DNA of 64,000 nucleotides from Candidatus Woesearchaeota archaeon (lineage in GTDB: Archaea > Nanobdellota > Nanobdellia > Woesearchaeales > UBA10216): assembly GCA_016180195.1 (NCBI GenBank), contig JACPBS010000006.1, forward strand, positions 4,681 to 68,680. Direction: 5' to 3'. Made by a program: the position numbers and the translations under genes. Below are positions 602 through 57,990 of the stretch, piece after piece. The notes under the pieces are model-generated. The model did not search any database. It was not told the origin of the DNA and was given only the letters and a program-made list of their open reading frames with translations. How positions within the stretch are numbered: position 1 is the first letter of the stretch; each line of letters opens with the position of its first letter.

Positions 602-916
602 ATGGCACAAAGAGCAAGAATAAAGATTGCAAGCACAGACATATCAAAGGTAATCCAGGTCTGCGATTCAATTAGAGATATTGTTGAAAAGACCGGCGTT
701 GACATGCGCGGCCCAATCCCCTTGCCAACCAAGAAGCTCAAAGTCACAACCAGGAAGTGCCCATGCGGTGATGGCAAGGCAACCTGGGACAGGTTTGAGA
801 TGCGCATACACAAGCGCCTTGTGGACATGGGTGTTGACGAGCGCGCATTAAGACTAGTGATGAGGGTCCCCATCCCGGAAGGCCTCAACATAGAGATAGA
901 GATGATCGAAGCTTAG
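602..916 (+). CDS. rpsJ: 30S ribosomal protein S10 (uS10)
   Basis: [11 protein letters not shown]...GPIPLPTK...RIHKRLVD; follows EF-1alpha; ATG at 602 preferred over the track start. Confidence 0.96.
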
Positions 917-1428
917 CTCAACTTTTTAACGTGGTTTCTTATTTTGTCAATTTGTTCATCGCTTAGCACTGCAATTGAGTCTTTTGTACTTATGAAAAAC
1001 AGTTTACATTCTTTCTTTATTTCTTCAATAACTTCGCCATCAACAGGCCTGTTTGCGTAATACTGCAGATCAATTCTTGCTTTAAAGGCTTTGCTTATCA
1101 TCTCAAAGTCTTTTGCGCTGTAAAAATCAACCAAATACCTCTTCATAAATTCCAACGAGCAGGAGTGGATTTCGCACTTTATACCGATCCTAGTCATTAA
1201 AGAATAGAGGGAATAATAAAATATGTAATAAGATGTAACTGCAGACCATAATCGGCTGCGATTGAGCCCTGGAAGAATATTTATCGATTCTTCTGCCATC
1301 TTCAAATAAGATCCCGATATGTTTTTATTTGGCTCAATCAGCTGAATGCCATCTTTCTGTTTCAAACACCATTCAATTGAAACCATAGTAATACCTCCAA
1401 ATTTCATTAACAAATTCCTCAACACCAT
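913..1428 (-). CDS. HEPN domain protein (MNT-HEPN pair; true start probably near 1389)
   Basis: [12 protein letters not shown]...KCEIHSC and R-x4-YY motifs typical of archaeal HEPN proteins; coupled to the upstream nucleotidyltransferase. Confidence 0.75.
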
Positions 1429-1954
1429 GTAGCATTATGTGATTTGAAACCATCTCGGAAACCAGCATGTTTTTCCCAATAAGAAGCTGCCGCCATTCCG
1501 TGTTTGAAAAATATTTTATGCTTGCCTTTATGTCGAATTTACCTGCTGCCTCATCATAGTCCATTTCCTTTTTTTCCCCAATAATGAAAATATCCAAATC
1601 TGAGCCTTGTTTTTGGATTCCCTTCGCATAGCTGCCGAAAATTCCAACAACCCTGTCATCATTCGAAAAAAGATTTGCCATAACTCTGTGTTTGCCGAGA
1701 AATAGAATTTTATTCAGAAGCTCAGTAATTATTATGATGTCCCTTATTTCTGAATACTTTGTGTTCAAGCTGTAAAACTTCATCTTTCCTCTAGTCGTAG
1801 ATCTCAGAATCCCTTTTATCTTCAAGTCTTTTAAAACCAAAGCAATGGTTTTTTCACTTAAAGGCGCTTTTCCTTTCAAACCCCTTCCGTGAACTTCCCT
1901 TGCATAATCACCTGAGAATTGGCTTAAAACATGAAAATATTTATCGTGTAACAT
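1373..1954 (-). CDS. Winged-HTH plus minimal nucleotidyltransferase (MNT antitoxin-like)
   Basis: N-terminal HTH-like segment; GSYAKG...SDLD Pol-beta-type motif; ATG at 1954. Confidence 0.8.
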   Translation of the reverse strand: MLHDKYFHVLSQFSGDYAREVHGRGLKGKAPLSEKTIALVLKDLKIKGILRSTTRGKMKFYSLNTKYSEIRDIIIITELLNKILFLGKHRVMANLFSNDDRVVGIFGSYAKGIQKQGSDLDIFIIGEKKEMDYDEAAGKFDIKASIKYFSNTEWRQLLIGKNMLVSEMVSNHIMLHGVEEFVNEIWRYYYGFN

Positions 1955-1972
1955 TTTACACAAATGTGTAAA
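1955..1972. promoter_or_regulatory. Inverted repeat, possible autoregulatory operator of the MNT-HEPN pair
   Basis: TTTACAC-aaat-GTGTAAA immediately upstream of the MNT start codon. Confidence 0.4.
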
Positions 1973-2124: not shown

Positions 2125-2570
2125 TTTACAAATAAATTTCGCCTTGGGTTCAAAGCCCCGCCCTTTAGGGCGAAACCCAAATCGTTTTGCGATTGGGCAC
2201 AATTGAGCTTTGCCCAATTTGTGTATTGTGTCAAGAACCCCTGGCTAAAGCCCAGGGTATGTTCTTGAGCACACAAATCAAGCTTTGCTTGATTGTGCCC
2301 ATTTGAGCTATGCTCAAATTGGGTCTCAGAAATTGCTCGTCCTTACTGCGCACTAAAAGTGCCACAGATTACGTCGAGAGCACAAATAAACGCTTGGCGT
2401 TTATTGTGCAATAAACCTTTAGGTTTGGCGTTTATTGTGCAATAAACCTTTAGGTTTATTTGCAATTTCTGACATTCCAAAACCCAAATCACTTTGTGAT
2501 TGGGCCCATTTGAACTCTGTTCGAATTGGGATCCGCCATTGAAGTGAGAGGATAGCTCCGAGCGGCGGAT
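2125..2570. repeat. Mosaic array of palindromic units (REP/BIME-like) with IS200/IS605-end-like hairpins
   Basis: Eight 22-30 nt bulged hairpins in alternating orientation; TTTA/TAAA-loop hairpins at 2159-2172 and 2238-2257; a 31-bp tandem duplication; segments recur at 27003-27205 and 32481-32531. Confidence 0.85.
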
Positions 2571-2606: not shown

Positions 2607-3863
2607 TCAAGCCAGTAGCCTTCTTATTCTAGTATTCAAACTCTGTTCAGACCTAACAAAAGTCTGGCTTTCATTAAGCAAATTATTAATCTCGGCTAAT
2701 ATATTTGCTTCATCAGTTCGGCCATTGATTGCCTGGTTTAAAAGTTCTATTGCTGAAGGATAGTTGCTTTTATATACATCCCTTATTGCAGCTTCCATTA
2801 TGTTTTGGATACGCCGGTCATCAGGCCCGATTTGGTTTACTGCAGTTTGAATTCTTCTTGATAACTCATCCCTGTTTTGCCTTAAAGTGACTAAAGCCCT
2901 TTGTGCTCTTTCAAGATTGTTATACAATGTTTGGGCTCCCGCTCCTAAGGGGGCTGTTCTGGCCAAACGCCTTAACGCATCTAAACGCCGCATTAAATCC
3001 CTTTCATAATTAAAATCAAGATCCACTATCTGCTGAAGCCTGCTTGTTAAGTCCGCCAATTGTCTGTCAACATCGCTAGTAGTACTTAAATGTCCCAAAA
3101 CAGCAGAAGCCTGCCTTTGAAAACCATCCCTCAGTCTTCTGGCTTCGCCTTCATCCCTTACCTTTTGAAGCTCTTCTATTATCTTCAATAAGTGCCTAAG
3201 CTTTGGTTCGTCCCCATGGATGTTGTTTATATTGTTCCGCAATAAATTCTCTGCTTCTTTAATCCCTTCGTCTTCACGTCGATATACTGTTTGCTCGAGT
3301 TTAGCATCCCTCCTTGCAGCATCCTTTTCTCGATTCTCGTTAACACTTTGCAGCTGAGTTCTATAATCGCCAAATTTGCTTGGCCAAGCCATTCCCAAAC
3401 CTAATTTGCTGCCGCTGAAGCCTATGCCTACCAAGATAAAAAGTATCGCGAATACGCCAGCAAATACGAGTCCACCTTGGGTAAAATCAAGCAAAGCCGC
3501 CACGTTGTTGACAAAGGATGTGGATGTAACTGCAATTCCTGAAAAAGCGATTGCAAACCATGTGATGGCGCCCTTATGGGGGGAATCCTTAAATGGGGGT
3601 ATGCTATTTGCCAAAACATAAAGCACCGCATACAATGCAATCCAAGTAAGAAGAATGACATAAAAAGGAACAGTCTGTGTTGGGAGAGGGAGTCCGGGCG
3701 TGGCATTCCACGGAGGCCAGTTCACTGGCTCGGACAGCATATCTATTAATGACCTTAACATCGGGTTGTTCTGGAAGAATCCGCCTGAAGCTGCAAATAC
3801 ATAATTCACCGAAAGCAAAGAAATAATGATTAGGGATAATGCCTTAATGTATCTCTTATTCAT
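2607..3863 (-). CDS. Hypothetical membrane protein with a long C-terminal coiled coil
   Basis: ATG at 3863 gives a signal-like N-terminus, about four hydrophobic helices, then a heptad-rich charged region. Confidence 0.75.
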   Translation of the reverse strand: MNKRYIKALSLIIISLLSVNYVFAASGGFFQNNPMLRSLIDMLSEPVNWPPWNATPGLPLPTQTVPFYVILLTWIALYAVLYVLANSIPPFKDSPHKGAITWFAIAFSGIAVTSTSFVNNVAALLDFTQGGLVFAGVFAILFILVGIGFSGSKLGLGMAWPSKFGDYRTQLQSVNENREKDAARRDAKLEQTVYRREDEGIKEAENLLRNNINNIHGDEPKLRHLLKIIEELQKVRDEGEARRLRDGFQRQASAVLGHLSTTSDVDRQLADLTSRLQQIVDLDFNYERDLMRRLDALRRLARTAPLGAGAQTLYNNLERAQRALVTLRQNRDELSRRIQTAVNQIGPDDRRIQNIMEAAIRDVYKSNYPSAIELLNQAINGRTDEANILAEINNLLNESQTFVRSEQSLNTRIRRLLA

Positions 3864-3954
3864 TCCATGGCACCACTTTTCATTGATTTTTCCAAAACCA
3901 TATATAAAAACTTTTCTACAAAGTTTTAAATAATACCTTGTTAAGAATTGTCCC

Positions 3955-4380
3955 ATGGCAGTTGCGGAATCAGGCCTTGTAATTGTACCAGCACTTTTTT
4001 TTGGCGCCATAATATCCCTGGCGGAGCTTTTCTTTGTCCATGCAGATGAGCGCGGAATGGGCTGGCTTGGACATGGGCTTCATGCGATACCCGCTACCAT
4101 GGCGTTCACGTTCGCAACAATGAACGTGCCTTTCATCTTGCAATATCTTAACCAGACTGTTACTGTAACATGGCAGATTGAGATGGGAGTGATCGCATTT
4201 GTTTCAATCATTGCAATGCTTAAGGTGAGCGCAGCGGCAGCGATCATTGGAAGGGTTGGCGAGAAATTCCATCACACGCTCATGATTGGCGGACTCATGT
4301 TCGTTTCGCCTTACATATGGAAAGCGATGGGGCCTGCTTTGACCAATATGCTTCCATTTCTTGCTTACGAGATATTTTAA
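3955..4380 (+). CDS. Hypothetical multi-pass membrane protein
   Basis: 141-aa ORF with about four hydrophobic segments, divergent from the 3863 gene. Confidence 0.7.
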   Translation: MAVAESGLVIVPALFFGAIISLAELFFVHADERGMGWLGHGLHAIPATMAFTFATMNVPFILQYLNQTVTVTWQIEMGVIAFVSIIAMLKVSAAAAIIGRVGEKFHHTLMIGGLMFVSPYIWKAMGPALTNMLPFLAYEIF

Positions 4381-4437: not shown

Positions 4438-4677
4438 ATGGAAGCTACCACGATTAAGATAAACACATCAACAAAAAGCAAGCTGGACACATTCAGGGAG
4501 TATAAGAATGAGAGCTATGATGAAGTAATAAATAAAGTGATTTTCATAGCTGAAAATTTCAAAAAAAGGATAGAGTTAAGTGAGGAGACAATTGCAGCAA
4601 TTGAACGTGCCAGGGAGCGGATACAAAAAGGCAAATTTCTGACAGAATCAGAAGCCAAAAGAAGGCTAGGACTATAA
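4438..4677 (+). CDS. Antitoxin, RHH/CopG-like N-terminus
   Basis: TTIKIN...TKSKL...ESYDEVI pattern; abuts a RelE-family toxin. Confidence 0.75.
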   Translation: MEATTIKINTSTKSKLDTFREYKNESYDEVINKVIFIAENFKKRIELSEETIAAIERARERIQKGKFLTESEAKRRLGL

Positions 4678-4935
4678 ATGTACGAAGTAATTTTCGATCC
4701 TGAAGCTGTTGAAGCGCTTAATAAGCTTCAGAAATCAGAAAAAGAAAGGATATTCAATAAAATCATGGTATCTAAAGAAAACCCCTTTCATTTCTTTGAA
4801 CGCTTAACCGGCAGAACAGATTATAAGATGAGGGTGGGGGACTACAGAATAATTGCGGATATTGATGCAGGTAAGAGATTAATTCAAGTTACAGTTATTG
4901 GCCACAGAAGGAACATTTATAGGAACCTGGATTAA
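4678..4935 (+). CDS. RelE/ParE-family toxin
   Basis: YKMRVGDYRII...VIGHRRNIY signature. Confidence 0.88.
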   Translation: MYEVIFDPEAVEALNKLQKSEKERIFNKIMVSKENPFHFFERLTGRTDYKMRVGDYRIIADIDAGKRLIQVTVIGHRRNIYRNLD

Positions 4936-5617: not shown

Positions 5618-6448
5618 ATGGGCATAATGCTGAAGGAAAGGAAAACCCGAAGCCACAAGGGAGAGAATGGAAGGGTGTTGGTGGTCGGGGGCAGCATTGA
5701 GTATGCAGGGGCAGTCATACTTGCAGGGATGGCTGCATTCAGGTCCGGGGCAGATATCGTTGTTGTTGCCGCACCTGAGAAAATTGCACTTGCACTGAAT
5801 TTCTGGCCAGACTTCATCACCCTGAAGCTGAAAGGAAGCCATCTTGGGAAAACACATTCCAAAAGAATAATCGAGGCATCCAAGAGATTTGATGCGCTTC
5901 TTGTTGGAAACGGCATGGGTACGAGAAGGGAAAGCATGGACTTTGCAGTTAAGGTTACAAGGGGCTCTGGCTGCAAAAAGATAATAGATGCTGATGCAAT
6001 AAGATCCATAAGGCTCCAGGACGTCAATAATTCCATAATCACGCCTCATATGGAGGAGCTTGAAGTGCTTCTCAGGAACAGCGGGGTAAGGAAAGCAGGG
6101 CTTCAGGGAAAAATAAGCCAAGCTAAGAGGATCCTGGGGGACAACGTTATCCTGCTTAAAGGGAAAACAGACTATATCATCTCAAAAAACAGAACAGAAA
6201 CAAACAATACAGGCAACGCAGGCATGACTGTCGGAGGCACAGGAGATGTGCTTGCCGGGGTATGCGCAGGCCTTGTCGCCCAGGGAAACAGCCTTTTCAA
6301 TAGCGCATGCGCTGCTGCATACATAAATGGCTATGCAGGATACCTGCTTTACAGGAAATACGGCTATGGATATACGGCAACTGACCTGGTTGACAAAATA
6401 GCGGAGATCCTGAAAAAGAAAAGAATTAAAACAAGCTCGAATAAGTGA
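5618..6448 (+). CDS. nnrD: ADP-dependent NAD(P)H-hydrate dehydratase (YjeF C-terminal domain)
   Basis: HKGENGRVLVVGGS, IDADA, ITPH, LLKG and GGTGDVLAG motifs. Confidence 0.93.
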   Translation: MGIMLKERKTRSHKGENGRVLVVGGSIEYAGAVILAGMAAFRSGADIVVVAAPEKIALALNFWPDFITLKLKGSHLGKTHSKRIIEASKRFDALLVGNGMGTRRESMDFAVKVTRGSGCKKIIDADAIRSIRLQDVNNSIITPHMEELEVLLRNSGVRKAGLQGKISQAKRILGDNVILLKGKTDYIISKNRTETNNTGNAGMTVGGTGDVLAGVCAGLVAQGNSLFNSACAAAYINGYAGYLLYRKYGYGYTATDLVDKIAEILKKKRIKTSSNK

Positions 6449-10925: not shown

Positions 10926-11732
10926 ATGGAATTCAAGATAAACAGGATGCAGAATCCAAACCTGCGAAATTATCCGAAAGATGACTTAACTCTGGCGTAT
11001 GATTTCTCAAAGAAGATATATGACGAGTTTGGGAACTTTCTTAAGGCAATAATACTTTTTGGGAGCGTTGCAAAAAACAGGAACAGCAGCAAGGGCGATA
11101 TTGACCTGCTGGTAATCATAGATGACATAACCATGGAGCTCAATCCTGAAATCGTCCAAACCTACAGGATCATAATAGAAAAGACAATAGCCTCGACCTC
11201 AACAAAGCTCCACGTGACCAGCCTGAAGCTGACAACTTTCTGGGAGTATGTAAGGTCCGGGGATCCTGTGGGCATAAATATCCTGCGTGACGGGGTTGCT
11301 CTCCTGGATACTGGCTTCTTCGACCCTCTCCACGCGTTGCTGATAAAAGGAAGGATAAGGCCGACAGAAGAATCAGTCTTGACATACTTCTCAAGGGCAC
11401 CAAAAACATTGCACAACTCAAAGTGGCACCTGCTCCAGGCAGTGCTTGACCTTTACTGGGCAGTCATAGACTCGTCACATGCAGCCCTGATGAAGATGGG
11501 GGAAACACCCCCAAGCCCGGATCATGTAGGCGAAATGCTTGAGAGGATATTGGTAAAACAGGGCCTGCTCGACAGGAAATATGTCGGGATCATGAACAAT
11601 TTCTATACGCTTCAGAAAAGAATAATCTACAGGGAGATAAAGGAAATAACTGGGGCCCAGTATGACAAGCTTCTCAAGGATGCCCAGGAATATGTCTCCA
11701 AGATGGAAAAACTTATCGCCCTGAAGAAATAA
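10926..11732 (+). CDS. Nucleotidyltransferase-HEPN fusion protein
   Basis: FGSVAK...GDIDLL NTase motif followed by a HEPN-like helical domain (YWAVIDSSHAALM). Confidence 0.8.
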   Translation: MEFKINRMQNPNLRNYPKDDLTLAYDFSKKIYDEFGNFLKAIILFGSVAKNRNSSKGDIDLLVIIDDITMELNPEIVQTYRIIIEKTIASTSTKLHVTSLKLTTFWEYVRSGDPVGINILRDGVALLDTGFFDPLHALLIKGRIRPTEESVLTYFSRAPKTLHNSKWHLLQAVLDLYWAVIDSSHAALMKMGETPPSPDHVGEMLERILVKQGLLDRKYVGIMNNFYTLQKRIIYREIKEITGAQYDKLLKDAQEYVSKMEKLIALKK

Positions 11733-17327: not shown

Positions 17328-17481
17328 ATTGAAAACCTAGTTGTTAGCTGAAACCGATTCGGTTCACTGAAGTGAACTTCTATTTTCTCTCCCCTTCGGA
17401 ACCGAGGGGAGGAAAAAAGAACCTTGGTTTAAACAAGGCGAATCGGATCATTTACAACAGGATATGCAATAGGTTTTCAAT
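17328..17481. repeat. 154-bp structured element with 12-bp terminal inverted repeats (MITE- or ncRNA-like)
   Basis: ATTGAAAACCTA/TAGGTTTTCAAT; nested CCGATTCG/CGAATCGG stem enclosing three hairpins; core recurs at 35035-35089. Confidence 0.75.
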
Positions 17482-17578
17482 GCCGTCTCGAAGTCCTCCA
17501 AAGACAAAGAACCGGCCAAAGAGGCTAATTCTGGCGCAAATGCATAAAAAGAAATACTCGAACGAATTAATAGGGCTC

Positions 17579-18790
17579 ATGAGCAATCCTTGGGAAAGGG
17601 CAAAAAAGCAGCTTAGGGCAGCGTCTGAAAAGACAGGATTGGACCCCTATGCCGAGAAAAGGCTTTCAGAGCCGGACAGGACAATCGAAGTCAGCCTTCC
17701 AATGCGGATGGATGACGGGTCAGTAAAGGCTTTCAAAGGCTATCGGGTGCAGCACAACAACACGCTCGGACCTTACAAGGGCGGGCTCAGATACCACCTG
17801 ATGGTTTCAATGGATGAGGTCAAAGCCCTTGCTTTCTGGATGACCATTAAGAATGCGGTAATAGGGGTGCCGTTTGGGGGAGGGAAGGGAGGAATAATAG
17901 TTGACCCGAAAACTCTTTCCGGAAAGGAACTTGAAAGGCTTACCCGCCTCTTCACAAGGAGAATGTCTGATGTCATAGGACCCCTGAAGGACGTGCCTGC
18001 CCCTGATGTTAACACAAATTCCCAGGTAATGAAGTGGATTGCGGATGAGTACCGAAAAGCAACAGGCAAAAGCCAGCCTGCAGTCGTAACAGGCAAGCCT
18101 GTCTCATCTGGTGGCTCAGAAGGAAGAGAAGAAGCGACAGGAAAGGGAGGCGCTTACTGCCTCAATTCGCTCCTGAAAAGGATGAGGATCAAAAAGTCAA
18201 CCGTAGCGATCCAGGGATTCGGGAATGTAGGGATAAACCTTGCCAAATCGCTGATCGAAGAGGGATTCATAATCAAGGCAATATCAGACTCGAAAGGAGC
18301 AATATATGCTGAAGAGGGAATTAAGGATATTGAAGGGCTTGAAAAACACAAGATAGAGAAAGGAACGGTCACTGGATTCATGGGTCTCAGATCCATAAGA
18401 ACGCATGAATTGCTTGAGCTGGATGTGGACATACTTGCCCCCTCTGCTTTGGAAAATTCTGTCACAATCGAAAATGCAGCCAGGGTAAAGGCAGAAATAA
18501 TCCTTGAAATGGCAAACGGGCCCCTTACCGAAGACGCTGACAGGATTCTTAAAGACAGGATAGTCATACCTGACGTGCTTGCAAATTCTGGAGGAGTTGC
18601 AGTAAGCTATTTCGAATGGTACCAAAACATGCACAAAACCAAATGGAACAAGCAAAAGGTGTTTGGAAAACTCAAAGAGCTAATGGAAACCGCTGTCAAA
18701 AACACCCTTGAGAGGAAAGACAGGTACAAGACAAGCCTGAGAATCGCAGCTTACATACTGGCGCTTGAAAGGATAGGCCGCAAGATTTAA
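17579..18790 (+). CDS. gdhA: Glu/Leu/Phe/Val dehydrogenase (glutamate dehydrogenase)
   Basis: GPYKGGLRYH, GGGKGG, PAPDV, VVTGKP, QGFGNVG and PDVLANSGGV motifs; start set at MSNPWE. Confidence 0.95.
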   Translation: MSNPWERAKKQLRAASEKTGLDPYAEKRLSEPDRTIEVSLPMRMDDGSVKAFKGYRVQHNNTLGPYKGGLRYHLMVSMDEVKALAFWMTIKNAVIGVPFGGGKGGIIVDPKTLSGKELERLTRLFTRRMSDVIGPLKDVPAPDVNTNSQVMKWIADEYRKATGKSQPAVVTGKPVSSGGSEGREEATGKGGAYCLNSLLKRMRIKKSTVAIQGFGNVGINLAKSLIEEGFIIKAISDSKGAIYAEEGIKDIEGLEKHKIEKGTVTGFMGLRSIRTHELLELDVDILAPSALENSVTIENAARVKAEIILEMANGPLTEDADRILKDRIVIPDVLANSGGVAVSYFEWYQNMHKTKWNKQKVFGKLKELMETAVKNTLERKDRYKTSLRIAAYILALERIGRKI

Positions 18791-26786: not shown

Positions 26787-27023
26787 TTGTCGTTCAACAA
26801 CAAAATGACTGCTGATTCACGTGTCGTGGATGCGCTAGACCGGATATCATACAGCCAGCCCTATGCGATAATCGAAAGCCTCGAAGAACTGACAGAAAAA
26901 CAGCTGGAACTCCTGTACGCAGGGCTGAAAGAACCTGAAAACCAGGCAACCTTGGCTCAGCTGATGTATTTCCAGAAATACCTTGACAAATTCATGCCCG
27001 AAGTGTCAAGAACCCCGGGCTAA
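26787..27023 (+). CDS. Small hypothetical protein whose stop codon lies inside the repeat element
   Basis: 78-aa ORF; its last codons read into TGTCAAGAACCCCGGGCTAA. Confidence 0.45.
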   Translation: MSFNNKMTADSRVVDALDRISYSQPYAIIESLEELTEKQLELLYAGLKEPENQATLAQLMYFQKYLDKFMPEVSRTPG

Positions 27024-27205
27024 AGCCCAGGGCGTTTCTTGAGCACACAAATCAAGCTTTGCTTGATTGTGCCCATTTGAGCTATGCTCAAATTGGGTCT
27101 CAGAAATTGCTCGTCCTTACTGCGCACTAAAGTGGCACAAATAAACGCTTGGCGTTTATTGTGCAATAAACCTTTAGGTTTATTTGCAATTTCTGACATT
27201 TCAAA
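27003..27205. repeat. Second copy of the mosaic palindromic element
   Basis: Near-identical to 2228-2481 except for two indels. Confidence 0.9.
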
Positions 27206-27470
27206 AGAGGTGGGGGCTATTGCTGTGGACCTTACTCGGTCTTCAATATAGTTCCTCTAATCTGGGTAGCCAAGGAATACCCTCAGGGCAACCGTGTGGT
27301 TCCAATAGAACACCTGTCAGACGAACTGGAGCTTGAAATAGGCAAGCCAATAGACCCGTATTTAAGGCAATCCCTTGTCACCCACTCAATCGACTACTCT
27401 GGCCTATTGGTAATGCAAACGCTCAAAAGATCTTACGAGGTTTATGTGGAAAAGGACAACATTGCAGCTT

Positions 27471-29330
27471 TCACCCAAGTTTAGATTGCCTCGTGTTGAA
27501 GAATTCCCTGATGTACTCCCTGTAATTTGCAGTTATCTTGGGCTTCATGTCTTTCGGGAAGCAGCTATAGTAGTTTGCCCACGCATACCTTTCATCCATG
27601 AAAATAATAACGCCCCTGTCAAGCTCGCTCCTTATGCATCTCCCGGCAGTCTGAAGGGCCTTCGTGAAGGCAGGGAAAACATAGCCGTAATCCCAGCCCT
27701 TTTTGTATCTTGCCTCATAATAATCAATAAGCTTTTTCGTCTCAAGATCAGGCTGCGCCAAAGGCAGCCCGACAATGATCACCCCGTTAAGAAGGTTTCC
27801 GGGAAGATCAATTCCCTCATAGAAATTCCCTCCAACAACTGCAAGAAGAACCCCCCCGACCAGGAAAGACCTCTTGAAGTCCGAGATGATCTTCACCTTT
27901 TCCTCCTTAGAGATCCCAGGAGACTCCAGCATCACATTCTTGACTATTTTGCCATGCATATGCTTGAACACCTCCCTCATTACAGCATAACTGGGGAAAA
28001 ATACGGCGACGTTTCCAGGAATCTCATTGGTTATGTTAACGCATACATCAGCAAGCTTCTCAAACTGCCTGTCGTCCCTCTTGCTGAACCTCGTGGTAAC
28101 CCCGGTTACTATCAGTGAAAGCCTGTTTTGCGCGGGAAAAGGATTGCGATATTCCCTCTCAACTGTTCCTTTAGGGAAGCCAAGCATGTCCCTGTACATT
28201 CCTGTCGGTGTCAGGGTTCCGCTCATCATTATTACAGAGTAAGCAGACCTCACCACCTTGGATGCCTCAAAGCCAGGATCCAGGCATTGGTAAGAAAGGG
28301 ATACAATCGGGCCTTTAGGGCCCTGCTTTCTTGATGCAATCCGTGCAAACCCCTCGTCATCGCCATCAACCCAAGACCCGAGAAAATCCGCAACCCCGGC
28401 AATCGAGCTCTGCCTCTGGGTTTCCCTGACTTCTTCCCCGACCTTGCCTAGCCTTTCAGCAGCATCCTCGATATCGTGGCCCTTGAGAAGCTCGAGAAGC
28501 TCATTTTTCCCAACAATCCTCTCAGTACCGATTGCAAAAAGGGCTTCCCTAAGATCTGAAAGGAAGATGCGCTCGTCATCGCCTGCAAACCTCTCAGCCT
28601 CCTTCACAGCCCTTTCAACAGATGAGGTGCTTATCCTTTCAGTCAGCATTTCCCTTATTCTCTGAGGAAGATTATGGGCCTCATCAACAATAATTATGAG
28701 GTTCTCAAGCTCCTTCCCGCTTTTCTTCAGGAACCCGTCGCGAATGACCTGGTTGAATATGTAATAATAATCCGCAATAATGACTGCAGAGTCCTTTGAG
28801 CAAAGGGCAGCGGCCTCATATGGGCACACCTTGAACATCCTTCCCATCTCTACAGTCTTTTCAGAGTCCTGCGGCTCCCTCTTGATGGAATCAATAACGA
28901 CCTTAAGATTGGTGTCGCTATTCCTGAAATTGTTGAAGAATTCGCATTGCCCGGCCTCCCGGACAGAAGTGCAGTAGTCATGGAACTGCCTGCTCTGAAG
29001 GGCTTCGATGCCTGGCTGGCAGCACATGTTCTTTTTCCCAACTATATCAGTCACTGAAAATTCCTTCCTGCACTTTTCCCTGATCATCCTCAGCGTGCTT
29101 ATCGCGATAGAGTGCTGCGTATGCCTGGAAGTCAGGAAAAAAACAGTCAAGCCATTATCCAGCGCGAATGAAAGGGAGGGTGCAAGGGCCGCGGCAGTCT
29201 TCCCAAGCCCTGTCGGCGCATGCGCAATAAGGCTTCTCCTGCCCGAAATTGACGAATAAACATCATCTATGAACCTGCCCTGCTCATCGCGAATATTCTG
29301 GTGCGGAAAAAAAGAAAGTGGGTCCGGCAT
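27471..29330 (-). CDS. XPD/Rad3/DinG-family FeS DNA helicase
   Basis: APTGLGKT, four FeS-cluster Cys (NMCC, DYC, GQC, VCPY), VDEAHN, MSGTL and QTAGRCIR motifs. Confidence 0.93.
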   Translation of the reverse strand: MPDPLSFFPHQNIRDEQGRFIDDVYSSISGRRSLIAHAPTGLGKTAAALAPSLSFALDNGLTVFFLTSRHTQHSIAISTLRMIREKCRKEFSVTDIVGKKNMCCQPGIEALQSRQFHDYCTSVREAGQCEFFNNFRNSDTNLKVVIDSIKREPQDSEKTVEMGRMFKVCPYEAAALCSKDSAVIIADYYYIFNQVIRDGFLKKSGKELENLIIIVDEAHNLPQRIREMLTERISTSSVERAVKEAERFAGDDERIFLSDLREALFAIGTERIVGKNELLELLKGHDIEDAAERLGKVGEEVRETQRQSSIAGVADFLGSWVDGDDEGFARIASRKQGPKGPIVSLSYQCLDPGFEASKVVRSAYSVIMMSGTLTPTGMYRDMLGFPKGTVEREYRNPFPAQNRLSLIVTGVTTRFSKRDDRQFEKLADVCVNITNEIPGNVAVFFPSYAVMREVFKHMHGKIVKNVMLESPGISKEEKVKIISDFKRSFLVGGVLLAVVGGNFYEGIDLPGNLLNGVIIVGLPLAQPDLETKKLIDYYEARYKKGWDYGYVFPAFTKALQTAGRCIRSELDRGVIIFMDERYAWANYYSCFPKDMKPKITANYREYIREFFNTRQSKLG

Positions 29331-32480: not shown

Positions 32481-32537
32481 TTTACAAATAAATTTCGCTT
32501 TGGGTTAAATGCCCCGCCCTTTAGGGCGAAATTTATT
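32481..32537. repeat. Stand-alone copy of the first module of the 2.1-kb array
   Basis: 48 of 51 nt identical to 2125-2175; perfect 12-bp IR AATAAATTTCGC/GCGAAATTTATT. Confidence 0.85.
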
Positions 32538-34995: not shown

Positions 34996-35173
34996 TGTCA
35001 AAAGGAGGTCCCATTGGTCTTCGTGAAGTTCTCACCTTCGGAACCGAGAGGGAAAAAAGAACCTTGGTTAAACAAAGGCGAATCGGGTCTTTTACAAGCA
35101 GAACAGGTAATGGGTTTCAAATACAGCCTAAATGCGAATTTTCTATCTTGTTCGCGACTAGTGGTTCTTGACA
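34996..35173. repeat. 178-bp structured element bounded by TGTCAA/TTGACA
   Basis: Core shared with 17393-17450; the right end (minus strand TGTCAAGAACC) matches the left end of the 2228/27003 modules. Confidence 0.7.
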
Positions 35174-40667: not shown

Positions 40668-40995
40668 TAAGCTTCGATGACTTTCTAAAAATGACATAAG
40701 GGTTGGGAAAATAGTTCAGGCAGAAGACTATCCTGATGCAAGGAAGCCCTCTTACAGGCTGAGAATTGATTTCGGCAGCGAAATCGGAGTGAAGCAGTCA
40801 AGTGCCCAGATAACCCGCCTCTACCCAAAGGATAGGCTCATTGGGATGCAGTTTATGGCAGTTGTGAATTTCCCTCCAAAGCAGATAGGGAAATTCATGT
40901 CAGAAGTCCTGACCCTCGGGGTTCCTGACGAAAAAGGGAATGTTGTCCTCATTTCTCCGGAGCGTGAAGTAGCGGTTGGCGCAAGGATGTTCTAA
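40664..40995 (+). pseudogene. csaA: CsaA tRNA-binding/secretion chaperone with a 1-nt frameshift near 40690
   Basis: MISFDDFLK is in one frame and DIRVGKIV...SSAQIT...NFPPKQIG...SEVLTLG in the -1 frame. Confidence 0.8.
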
Positions 40996-41573
40996 AAATT
41001 ATTCCGAAAACCTTTCGAAATTGGAGTAAAAACTTTAATATAGCCTGCCATTGCTTTTAAATATCAATGGGGAGGGCAGCGAAGCGAATGAGGGAATGCC
41101 TTGTTTGCAGAAATTATTGCCCATCAGCCGGGTATGTATACGAAAAAACAGTCAAATACATATTTTATTGCAATTACTGTAACAAGAAGATCTCGATTAT
41201 TCTAGAACCTCTTCAATGACCCTTTCTTTATTTCAACCATTTTCCTTTCCCATTCTTTATCAGAAATCATTAATGTGGGTTTGGATGGTGGCATTAAAGC
41301 GTCTAGCATCTCAAATGGATCTTTTGGCTTTCGCTTTAGGTATTTGATCATGCCTTAAATCTTAGATATAGAATTAATAAAGCTTTCTATTTGGGGACAT
41401 CGTCATATTTGGGATTCTGTTAACTTAAGGTTGGTGAGTTTTGAACTTTAGTTGGGATAAAACAAATAGTTAGAACATGGACAAAATGAAAATTTATGAG
41501 TTAATACTTCGTGGTCTGGAGTGCGGTGAGCTGAAGAAAGGGAATCCATCATTAAATGTTTTTCTGCCAAGCC

Positions 41574-41800
41574 TCAGCCGAAAGTCAGGACTTTTTCTGA
41601 TTCTTCAACAAGCTTGAGAAGTTCTTCCATCGTGGATAACGGGCATACTTTGCTACCTTCTTATCTGAGGCATGTCCCGCAAGCAAGAATGCTGCCGCCT
41701 GCGCTGAGAAACTTCTGATCGGAGGAATGGTAATTTTTGCATCTTTCACGCTTTCAAGTTCAACGCCTTTTCCTAGAGAAAAACTTTCACAGCCTTAAGG
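41574..41800 (-). pseudogene. DsrE-family protein remnant
   Basis: Fragments VKVFL / LGKGVELES / GGSILACGTCLR*EGSKVCPLSTM...SEKVLTFG lie in different frames, with an internal stop. Confidence 0.7.
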
Positions 41801-44154: not shown

Positions 44155-44311
44155 GCCGCTGTAGCTCAGCCTGGTCAGAGCGCCACGCTCATATTAGTTG
44201 AGCGATGAGACAAAGGTCGATGATTTAACTCTGACTTTGGGCCACGTGGAGCAAAACAGGACTATCCTGTTTTGCACGCAGAGGTCGGGGGTTCAAAGCC
44301 CCTCAGCGGCA
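44155..44311 (+). tRNA. tRNA-Met(CAT), elongator-type, with two introns (44194-44243 at 37/38; 32 nt in the variable loop)
   Basis: Acceptor GCCGCTG/CAGCGGC-A; anticodon arm CCACG-CTCATA^A-CGTGG; T arm GGGGG-TTCAAAG-CCCCT. Confidence 0.85.
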
Positions 44312-56755: not shown

Positions 56756-56863
56756 CGGGCCCACAGGGATTTGAATTCCAGCTTCTTCAGCTTTTCCAGC
56801 TGATAGTGTCCCTGGACCTGTTGGTTAAGAGCCAACCGCTCTACCAGACTAAGCTATGGGCCC
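56756..56863 (-). tRNA. tRNA-Lys(CTT) with a 34-nt intron at 53/54 (56776-56809)
   Basis: Acceptor GGGCCCA/TGGGCCC-G; anticodon arm GTTGG-CTCTTAA-CCAAC; CAGGG^TTCAAAT-CCCTG. Confidence 0.9.
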
Positions 56864-56888: not shown

Positions 56889-57335
56889 TTAAATAGTTTT
56901 TGCAGGTTTTTTCAGTTCCTTTGTCATTTCTGAGACGAAAAGCCTTGCATCCTCAACTGAAGTCAATGCATCGCCTTCGCTTGGATTAAACTCCAATCCG
57001 TACATTGATTCATGCCTTTCTATCCTGTGTATGTTAAGCGTGTTTATTATTGTAACAGGAATTCTTTTTGAATACTTTTCCTTGAGATAGACGAATATTG
57101 AATAATGGCTCTTCTCTTGGATACCGTCCCGATACAGTATTGCCCTTGCGGAATGGAACATTGCCATGTATGCATCCAGGATTGCGAAATCAAAAAGCCT
57201 CATTTTAAGGGATTTGTCCGCCCTTTCCAGCCTATCCTTTGCTATCTTAATGGACCTTTCTGATTTTTCCTTATCCGGACTTATTTTTCTGAGCAGCCTG
57301 AAATTAAAGCAATCTTCGACATTTCTTATTTCCAT
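56889..57335 (-). CDS. HEPN domain protein
   Basis: AYMAMFHSARAILYRDGIQEKSH and RHESMYG motifs. Confidence 0.85.
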   Translation of the reverse strand: MEIRNVEDCFNFRLLRKISPDKEKSERSIKIAKDRLERADKSLKMRLFDFAILDAYMAMFHSARAILYRDGIQEKSHYSIFVYLKEKYSKRIPVTIINTLNIHRIERHESMYGLEFNPSEGDALTSVEDARLFVSEMTKELKKPAKTI

Positions 57336-57877
57336 TTTACAATAGGCAGGTCTCCAATCAAAGGTATGCCGCGACTGATAACCTCATAATAAAAGGCCGA
57401 GTTTTCTCTTGCACTTTTATTCCAATCACCCCAGCTTAAAAAATGAATGTTTATTTCCCTGTTCAGTTTGGTTTCAAAGGCTGAAAGATCGATATGCTTC
57501 GCTTTCCCTATGACTAACATATCGAAATCGCTCTTTTCATCATCTTCCCCCTTTGCCTTTGACCCGAACAGTACAATTGAAGATAGGTTGGGAATGTTTT
57601 TATTTAGGTGCTCAATTAGCCCTGATTTCAGAATTGATTCTATGCTGAATGCGATTTTTAATTGCCTGAAGAAAAGGTTGGACATGTTCGCCCTGAAGAT
57701 TCTCAGGTTTGCCTTCTTTTCCTCTGTCAAAAGTCCTTCCCTGATCAGCAGGTCAGAATACTTCTTTGCAGCGAAAGGGCTAATTTTCAGCTTCGTTGCA
57801 AGCTCCCTCAAGTATACTTCCTTGTACGGGTTTTCTGTAAAAAACTTCAGTTCCTTGATTAGGAATAATTCATTCAT
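57326..57877 (-). CDS. HTH plus minimal nucleotidyltransferase
   Basis: YLRELATKL HTH; FGSKAKG...SDFD. Confidence 0.85.
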   Translation of the reverse strand: MNELFLIKELKFFTENPYKEVYLRELATKLKISPFAAKKYSDLLIREGLLTEEKKANLRIFRANMSNLFFRQLKIAFSIESILKSGLIEHLNKNIPNLSSIVLFGSKAKGEDDEKSDFDMLVIGKAKHIDLSAFETKLNREINIHFLSWGDWNKSARENSAFYYEVISRGIPLIGDLPIVKWK

Positions 57878-57990
57878 CCTTCTGTTTTTATTTTTGTCAT
57901 ATATAAAGATTATGTTTTTAAATAAAAACAATTGTTTTTTATTGTTGTTATTACGCATTATTTATATATTCCGTAAGTTCTCTTTTTCGC

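Follow-up and report, generated by a model that had tools for sequence, protein, structure and literature searches.

What are the bulged hairpins that crowd one intergenic gap of a DPANN archaeal genome, and how did they come to be there? Much is known of small palindromic repeats in bacteria, and DPANN genomes are usually seen as streamlined and repeat-poor. The hairpins lie in a block from position 2125 to ~2581 of a 64,000-nt stretch of contig JACPBS010000006.1 (hereafter the window) from Candidatus Woesearchaeota archaeon, assembly GCA_016180195.1; Woesearchaeota are placed in Nanobdellati, the DPANN kingdom (NCBI taxonomy). In the block, at least four families of small palindromic repeats are piled up between two genes. 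One component, a doublet of two inverted hairpins, is a conserved family across several DPANN-type archaea and seems to represent miniature mobile DNA of an undescribed kind; no description of the doublet motif was found in the searchable literature. The block very likely consists of selfish, mobile palindromic DNA.

All eight bulged hairpins that a first-pass annotation had reported in the block were found again by sequence reading and a script scan (22-30 nt each), with the limits of one of them (2438-2464) slightly wider than the 2439-2463 given before. Folding with DNA parameters left one unpaired base in every hairpin, as had been claimed: an A in the 5' arm of plus units and a T in the 3' arm of minus units. 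The DNA-fold z-scores were -2.6 to -5.2 in seven of the eight, and hairpin 2198-2223 was weaker (z = -1.8, one internal mismatch). The abutting arrangement of plus and minus units was also borne out, the eight units forming four inverted doublets. These are listed here, three of them with their scores under a covariance model of the doublet (hereafter R1):

2176-2223: doublet D-a, 48 nt; hairpins 2176-2197 (bulged A) and 2198-2223 (bulged T); R1 63.8 bits, E = 5.6e-14
2272-2323: doublet D-b, inside element B (described below); hairpins 2272-2297 and 2298-2323; R1 76.6 bits, E = 3e-17
2380-2464: variant doublet, split by a 31-nt duplication; hairpins 2380-2409 and 2438-2464, with the foot shortened to GCA/TGC or CACA/TGTG
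2483-2530: doublet D-c, abutting the AAAA end of element B; hairpins 2483-2504 and 2505-2530; R1 65.4 bits, E = 2e-14

Doublet D-b folded as DNA at -16.2 kcal/mol (z = -5.5), and D-c was 78% identical to D-a. The two hairpins of the variant doublet were separated by an exact 31-nt tandem duplication (2394-2424 / 2425-2455). Its uninterrupted form was present at 27135-27188, where both hairpins abut and have 3 nt in common. The accessory structures described before were real as well, namely the hairpins CGCCC-TTTA-GGGCG (2159-2172) and TCAAGAAC...GTTCTTGA (2231-2268) and the 11-bp inverted repeat 2326-2336 / 2462-2472. The fold of the whole 456-nt region had z-scores of -11.8 (plus strand) and -11.5 (minus strand), the window copies of the doublet scored E = 1e-14 to 1e-17 with the covariance model, and the hairpin array is far beyond chance. 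A script scan of the 64 kb found no units with the C(C/A)CA foot outside the mosaic and the 27-kb locus. Rfam 15 gave no match to the region at the gathering threshold, with only chance-level matches (27 bits or less) when E values up to 10 were allowed; the block overlaps neither a tRNA nor another known RNA.

The doublet is 48-54 nt long; its two hairpins abut in inverted orientation, and each is built of an invariant 4-bp foot, C(C/A)CA / TG(G/T)G, one unpaired base, an A-T and a T-A pair, a stem of free sequence (~3-7 bp), and a loop of 3-5 nt. In an alignment of 16 doublets, the unpaired base was an A in the 5' arm of hairpin 1 and a T in the 3' arm of hairpin 2, and covariation refined its place: the bulge follows the 4-bp foot, and the A-T and T-A pairs come after it. 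Compensatory change in the stems, which had been proposed earlier, was evident in this alignment, where 98% of cells were paired and 10 of 22 pairs were changed on both sides (42 cells). None of 500 shuffles reached the signal, and it was abolished when the partners were slid by 1-3 columns. The bulge was retained in every unit although the stems vary. The termini of the doublet are perfect inverted repeats of 7-8 nt. R1 matched all doublets on both strands and revealed no further copies in the examined loci; the doublet is therefore two-fold symmetric, and both DNA strands show the same hairpin pair. Units were never solitary in 168 kb and occurred in doublets only.

A fold that joins the 5' end of hairpin 1 to the 3' end of hairpin 2 by pairing was considered as an alternative and rejected. 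The change of the foot from CCCA to CACA is compensated inside one hairpin and not across the two, which rules out pairing of the outer ends.

For copies in other organisms, a degenerate doublet pattern was scanned over one genome per species (185,579 species), with one pattern used for genomes and one for metagenomes. The genome scan returned 41 matches, about the number expected by chance, and 10 of them had a true two-hairpin structure. All 10 were located in archaeal metagenome-assembled genomes (MAGs) or a single-amplified genome (SAG): four in Woesearchaeota, two in Nanoarchaeota SAG AM-311-K23, and four in one MAG labelled Methanosarcinales. Three further true doublets were found in metagenomes. 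Three pattern scans of IMG/VR viral contigs yielded no doublets, the 16 loose matches being due to chance and failing the covariance model, and there was thus no sign of a viral or plasmid carrier. In the low-GC SAG (GC 0.32-0.34), the doublets had a GC content of 0.43-0.45. In another lineage, the doublet was carried on a stem inside a different palindromic composite of ~210 nt, present at three sites with 95% identity (L numbers denote the examined loci):

L023, 6501-6710: composite of two palindromic modules
L044, 10353-10558: the same composite
L045, 3-129: the same composite

With a doublet inside these composites, the mosaic habit recurs. The doublet stands there on a 9-bp stem within a AGAAATCCGAC / GTCGGATTTCT helix, and hairpin 1 of the L045 copy differs from those of L023 and L044 by compensatory G-C to C-G changes and a different loop.

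In the window, the mosaic is laid out as module L with D-a, element B with D-b and the variant doublet, D-c, and module R. Besides the doublets, its parts and their dispersed copies are as follows:

2125-2175: module L, a small palindromic repeat with the hairpin CGCCC-TTTA-GGGCG; 94% identical to 32481-32531
2228-2482: element B copy A, a composite palindromic repeat; match to 27003-27206
2531-2581: module R, with a T-run after the hairpin ATCCGCC...GGCGGAT (2531-2570); right boundary of ~2581 deduced from k = 31 (see below)
27003-27206: element B copy B, 204 nt; doublet 27046-27097 and variant doublet 27135-27188
32481-32537: solo copy of module L; here the small palindrome is complete, with a 12-bp inverted repeat, AATAAATTTCGC / GCGAAATTTATT, closing it

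Element B copy A contains the hairpin at 2231-2268, D-b, the 11-bp inverted repeat, and the variant doublet. The two copies of element B differ at few positions, apart from an extra segment of ~19 nt (about 2361-2379) and the 31-nt duplication (2394-2455) in copy A. Further copies of module R, probably a repeat too, would lie outside the window. With the copies at 27003-27206 and 32481-32537 and those in other DPANN-type genomes, the repeat system is dispersed and no one-off, as the first-pass annotation had supposed. Two outcomes that it had named as refuting, a lack of further copies and a lack of covariation, did not hold. Modules L, H, and R had no relatives in the other doublet-bearing genomes, and the doublet alone was in common.

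The relation between module L and D-a indicates how the block was built. In the solo copy, the GCGAAATTTATT arm is intact, whereas the right inverted-repeat arm in the mosaic is cut after GCGAAA and continues with the 48-nt doublet D-a and a leftover TATT (2224-2227), after which element B begins at 2228. Since the solo copy keeps the arm that D-a splits, D-a is an insertion into a pre-existing repeat. No target duplication was visible when the filled and solo copies were compared. The repeats had previously been described as shuffled; a better description is that at least four different small elements were inserted into and beside one another.

Insertion was also seen in coding sequences, where the doublet lay in frame inside genes in 3 of 14 independent copies. 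At L035, it lies inside a homoserine dehydrogenase gene and encodes PKLSRAQLGPISAERKFG, an 18-residue insertion that forms a gap against PDB structures and that none of the 11 aligned DPANN homologues has; the homologue closest in sequence (56% identity) is shorter by 21 residues. The other two copies are located near the N-terminus of a metallophosphoesterase (L019) and in an ORF for a Lys-rich zinc-ribbon protein (L021). One frame was common to all three, CCC AAA ... TTG GGC CCA ATT ... TTT GGG, over 51 or 54 nt (17-18 residues). A comparison of the doublet-encoded peptide with 5.8 billion proteins gave nothing scorable, the query being too short. The doublets kept no consistent position relative to genes: some were at 5' or 3' ends, some inside genes, and their neighbors included varied housekeeping and toxin-antitoxin genes. 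An A3 tract abutted one end of the doublet at 11 of 14 independent sites (p ~2e-11), and at L035 TTT was present on both sides. The earlier suggestion of mobilised DNA is in accordance with these data, in which the doublet splits another repeat and forms in-frame insertions in genes.

On balance, we favor the reading that the block from 2125 to ~2581 is composed of small non-autonomous palindromic mobile elements and that the doublet is copied by a trans-acting protein that reads hairpins. The bulge is kept while the stems vary yet pair, which argues for a protein that would read the folded foot and the extrahelical base, on single-stranded or cruciform DNA, and not a duplex terminal repeat. 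In the proposed mechanism, a protein encoded elsewhere would recognize the folded hairpin foot together with the extrahelical base on single-stranded DNA and would copy the doublet to new sites, with insertion beside A-runs and without target duplication. The likeliest candidate would be an HUH/Y1 transposase, either IS200/IS605-like or RAYT-like (RAYT, REP-associated tyrosine transposase; REP, repetitive extragenic palindromic), and we regard an HUH/Y1-type mobilizing enzyme as a tentative assignment. The A3 flank and the absence of a target duplication in module L fit the logic of IS200/IS605 and RAYT systems. Copies would survive only where they are tolerated, in intergenic safe havens or as in-frame loops of 17-18 codons, and the elements may be clustered because insertions persist only in such intergenic havens.

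Several observations weigh against this reading. Pfam searches found no transposase among the 60 ORFs of the window, as the first-pass annotation had stated, and no transposase or integrase when 20 neighboring ORFs were included; a regular expression for Y1/HUH motifs likewise found none in the window and 13 doublet loci. The mobilizing enzyme is therefore conjectural, and the HUH step is one that we infer. The sole empty-site reference, the solo module L, is a paralogous repeat copy and not an orthologous site. The far flank of the doublet begins with AA at 5 of 11 sites (flanks read by eye), so that a short, decayed target duplication is possible. The copy number appears low, with four doublets in 64 kb, all at two loci, unlike populations of REPs or REPINs (REP doublets forming hairpins), and no doublets occurred in ~150 kb of other DPANN contigs that were sampled regardless of doublets. 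The compensatory changes could stem from template switching from arm to arm in palindromes and not from selection, and the doublets may have a role at the RNA level. Finally, among Logan contigs from several sequencing runs, none was found that crosses the block, and the mosaic order and the 31-nt duplication are thus provisional.

The copies could alternatively be conventional cut-and-paste MITEs (miniature transposable elements with inverted repeats), whose CCCAAAT...ATTTGGG terminal inverted repeats would be bound as duplex by a DDE transposase and which would insert at A/T-rich sites with a target duplication of 2-3 bp. The perfect 7-8-nt termini would suit such elements, as would the A3 tract at 11 of 14 sites, the AA on the opposite flank in 5 of 11, and the TTT on both sides at L035; moreover, in a bulk census of MITEs, one Woesearchaeal genome was noted as rich in them (105 MITEs per Mb), its families being left uncharacterized (PMC11602168). 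A model of terminal repeats only leaves unexplained the internal inverted copy of the motif (ATTGGG-CCCAAT), the strict two-hairpin organization with compensatory stems, and the universal 1-nt bulge. In addition, the duplication was absent in the single comparison of filled and empty sites, and no DDE transposase was found by Pfam in the 60 window ORFs; we therefore consider MITEs of this kind unlikely. Folded single strands are also recombined in integron attC sites, which share with the doublets a conserved outer stem, a variable center, and extrahelical bases, and the doublets might accordingly be read as attC-like sites of an integron-like or Xer-like tyrosine recombinase. This is highly improbable: the GTTRRRY / RYYYAAC core is absent (the consensus here is CCCAAAT / ATTGGG), the units are 22-30 nt as against 55-140 nt, doublets do not delimit gene cassettes, several copies are inside genes, and no integrase was found in the window or neighboring loci.

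It is quite unlikely that the doublets are host cis-acting RNA or DNA signals, that is, 3'-end stabilizers, bidirectional terminators, or binding sites of a DPANN protein, with the block possibly forming a structured transcript. This explanation draws on the extreme fold on both strands (z about -11.7), the strong conservation of foot and bulge across lineages, the two-fold symmetry, which suits a bidirectional signal, the location of several copies just past stop codons, and a G-T wobble in the doublet-carrying stem of L023. It is at odds with the in-frame copies in homoserine dehydrogenase and two other ORFs, the inconsistent positions relative to genes, the near-identity of the ~200-nt element B at two unrelated sites, the lack of an Rfam match, and the absence of doublets from the ~150 kb of other DPANN sequence. 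Some copies may have been exapted, and a host signal is compatible with mobility. An assembly artefact would concern the mosaic order and not the units themselves: repeats would have been threaded together, and the 31-nt tandem duplication would be a k-mer loop. Independent short-read (Logan) contigs retrieved by exact-protein look-ups of flanking genes were 100% identical to the flanks and ended at 2155, 2552, and ~27032. The first breakpoint equals 2125+30, the break at 2552 was shared by two independent contigs and falls 30 nt short of the ~2581 boundary, and contigs from five samples end at ~27032, 30 nt into element B copy B. Logan contigs are built with k = 31, and ends 30 nt inside the repeat edges are what a k = 31 graph would give at multi-copy sequence; the breaks at 2552 thus place the right edge of the block at ~2581 and make module R probably repetitive. 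An artefact would account for the halt of all flank-identical contigs at 2155 and 2552, with none across, and for the exactness of the duplication, but true repeats are also expected to break contigs at their edges, SNPs and indels between element B copies A and B provide unique anchors, and a similar mosaic of palindromic modules is present in independent assemblies of another lineage (L023, L044). An artefactual order is accordingly improbable, and small mobile elements read by a hairpin-specific protein remain the preferred explanation. A bulge-helix-bulge intron, CRISPR, a replication origin with origin recognition boxes, and an uptake sequence were each rejected on anatomy.

The mosaic occupies a 643-nt gap between two minus-strand genes:

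1373-1954 (-): nucleotidyltransferase-type gene
2607-4010 (-): gene for an orphan membrane protein, 418/467 residues

It lies between the likely terminator of the latter and the promoter of the former. The window itself is a compact, ordinary archaeal chromosome segment with intergenic gaps mostly <100 nt, and its genes include those for aEF1A, S10, S3Ae, class I LysRS, archaeal FBPase, the mevalonate pathway, GyrB, and type IV pili. GyrB of the window shares 74-84% identity with that of locus L043. Toxin-antitoxin-like modules, consisting of nucleotidyltransferase (NTase)/HEPN-type pairs and one ParE/DUF7557 pair, were located at:

913-1963 (-)
4438-4935 (+)
10926-11732 (+)
56889-57958 (-)

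The mosaic is directly upstream of one NTase pair. An NTase/HEPN-like pair of the window showed 52-59% identity to the pair of Woesearchaeota locus L029, which is also doublet-bearing; in the L029 pair, a doublet is fused to the 3' end of the second ORF. These protein identities to L029 and L043 agree with a DPANN affinity of the window, as does the occurrence of the doublet family only in contigs labelled Woesearchaeota, Nanoarchaeota, and Methanosarcinales.

Element B copy B overlaps the last 7 codons of an orphan ORF (26805-27023, 72 residues), whose end, SRTPG plus stop, comes from the element. Deletion of 27003-27206 would lengthen this ORF by EVGAIAVDLTRSSI. Homologues of the ORF, sought as an empty site for element B, were not found. 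Another open frame leaves element B (27197-27484) and enters 27296-27484.

Other small repeats were present in these genomes. In the window, a dispersed pair of ~90 nt (17388-17476 / 35030-35117; 83% identity), unrelated to the doublets, holds the hairpins CTCCCCTTCGGAACCGAGGGGAG and CCTTGGTTTAAACAAGG, and its copy at 17388-17476 makes the glutamate dehydrogenase ORF (17372-18790) look 100 residues too long at the N-terminus. In other DPANN loci, repeats of 41-43 nt with 95% identity were found (L029, 447-487 / 1650-1690; L044, 5080-5122 / 5791-5833), one of which immediately adjoins a doublet. This suggests that these DPANN genomes carry several small-repeat families. The doublet at L007 (5952-6003) lies ~350 nt upstream of an Orc1/Cdc6-like ORF (AAA_16/AAA_22 plus winged helix), and more long hairpins come after the doublet; its surroundings may be a replication-origin neighborhood.

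Three further features of the window were recorded:

40995-41737: 741 nt without an ORF of at least 60 residues, without an Rfam match (E up to 0.1), and without notable inverted repeats
44155-44311 (+): tRNA-like gene of 157 nt, implying intron(s) of ~86 nt; inside a 772-nt ORF-free gap; seen in permissive Rfam mode only (42.2 bits, E = 8.5e-7)
56756-56863 (-): tRNA gene with a Lys-like CUU anticodon and an insertion of ~33-41 nt within the region of the T-arm, non-canonical for an intron; 49.7 bits with Rfam tRNA, whereas ARAGORN reports no tRNA in the window

The covariance model R1 provides a sequence handle for finding the responsible enzyme by phylogenetic profiling. The doublets would be a new example of selfish DNA that remodels proteins in reduced symbiont genomes. 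They also serve as a warning for the annotation of DPANN MAGs, since short-read assemblies break at such blocks, and spurious ORFs, or spurious extensions at the N- or C-terminus, arise from them.

Among known systems, the first-pass annotation had likened the array to REPs and bacterial interspersed mosaic elements (BIMEs). REPs, which are 20-40 nt long, carry at their 5' head a conserved tetranucleotide, GTAG or CGTC, and number tens to hundreds per genome in extragenic positions, and REPs and REPINs have a cognate single-copy RAYT (Y1 HUH) gene that is usually repeat-flanked. The likeness held in part. As in REP, BIME, and REPIN systems, the units are short imperfect palindromes (22-30 nt) with an extrahelical base and alternating orientation, the inverted doublet is the unit of propagation, the copies form intergenic mosaics with other short motifs, and the element lacks a transposase of its own. 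Unlike these systems, the host is an archaeon, the hairpins abut without a spacer, the stems differ freely among copies instead of forming a near-identical population, the copy number appears low and patchy, some copies are genic, and no RAYT was found in the window and 13 loci. The GTAG/CGTC tag was absent from the alignment of 16 doublets, the flank being an A3 tract on one side only. REPINs have been stated to be "not detected in archaea" (bioRxiv 10.1101/2021.07.10.451892). The doublets might be the first archaeal counterpart of a REPIN-RAYT-type system, in which a single-strand DNA transposase specific for hairpin and bulge (HUH/Y1 or of an unrecognized family) would be present in some DPANN archaea and would maintain and spread a symmetric two-hairpin element across lineages, also colonizing coding sequences as Rickettsia palindromic elements (RPEs) do; such a system is possible, though doubtful.

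IS200/IS605 elements are defined by a mechanism that recognizes folded, bulged hairpins on one strand. The family has been described as the most widespread among insertion sequences (IS) in archaea (PMC13343696). The doublets resemble these elements and their non-autonomous, hairpin-ended derivatives, palindrome-associated transposable elements (PATEs), in that A3 abuts one end, similar to a target tetranucleotide, and in that no target duplication was seen in the single filled/empty comparison. Element B likewise resembles IS200/IS605 derivatives: each of its ends carries a hairpin, and it lacks both terminal inverted repeats and a target duplication. They differ in that the two hairpins of the doublet are adjacent and symmetric, whereas IS200/IS605 has distinct left and right ends separated by cargo, and in that the doublet ends are inverted repeats by construction, while elements derived from IS200/IS605 lack terminal inverted repeats. 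Moreover, a parent IS with matching ends is not known, and neither tnpA nor tnpB was detected in the window and 13 loci. No isolated single hairpins flanking a gene were present in the examined loci.

In their behavior, the doublets recall RPEs, whose in-frame insertion into protein-coding genes unrelated to one another lengthens the products by a short peptide segment (PMC10969869). Both are small palindromic repeats of host-dependent organisms with reduced genomes, both add in frame a peptide that homologues lack, and no transposase is known for either. RPEs are longer (100-150 bp, as compared with inserts of 51-54 nt here), bacterial, and unrelated in sequence, and the copies described here are mostly intergenic. 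The likeness to integron attC sites lies in the conserved outer stem, variable center, and extrahelical bases of a site that acts as folded single-stranded DNA, whereas the core sequence, the shorter paired units, the lack of cassette organization, and the absence of an integrase set the doublets apart. Thus, the doublets are closest to REP/BIME/REPIN systems by architecture, to RPEs by behavior, and to IS200/IS605 derivatives by likely chemistry.

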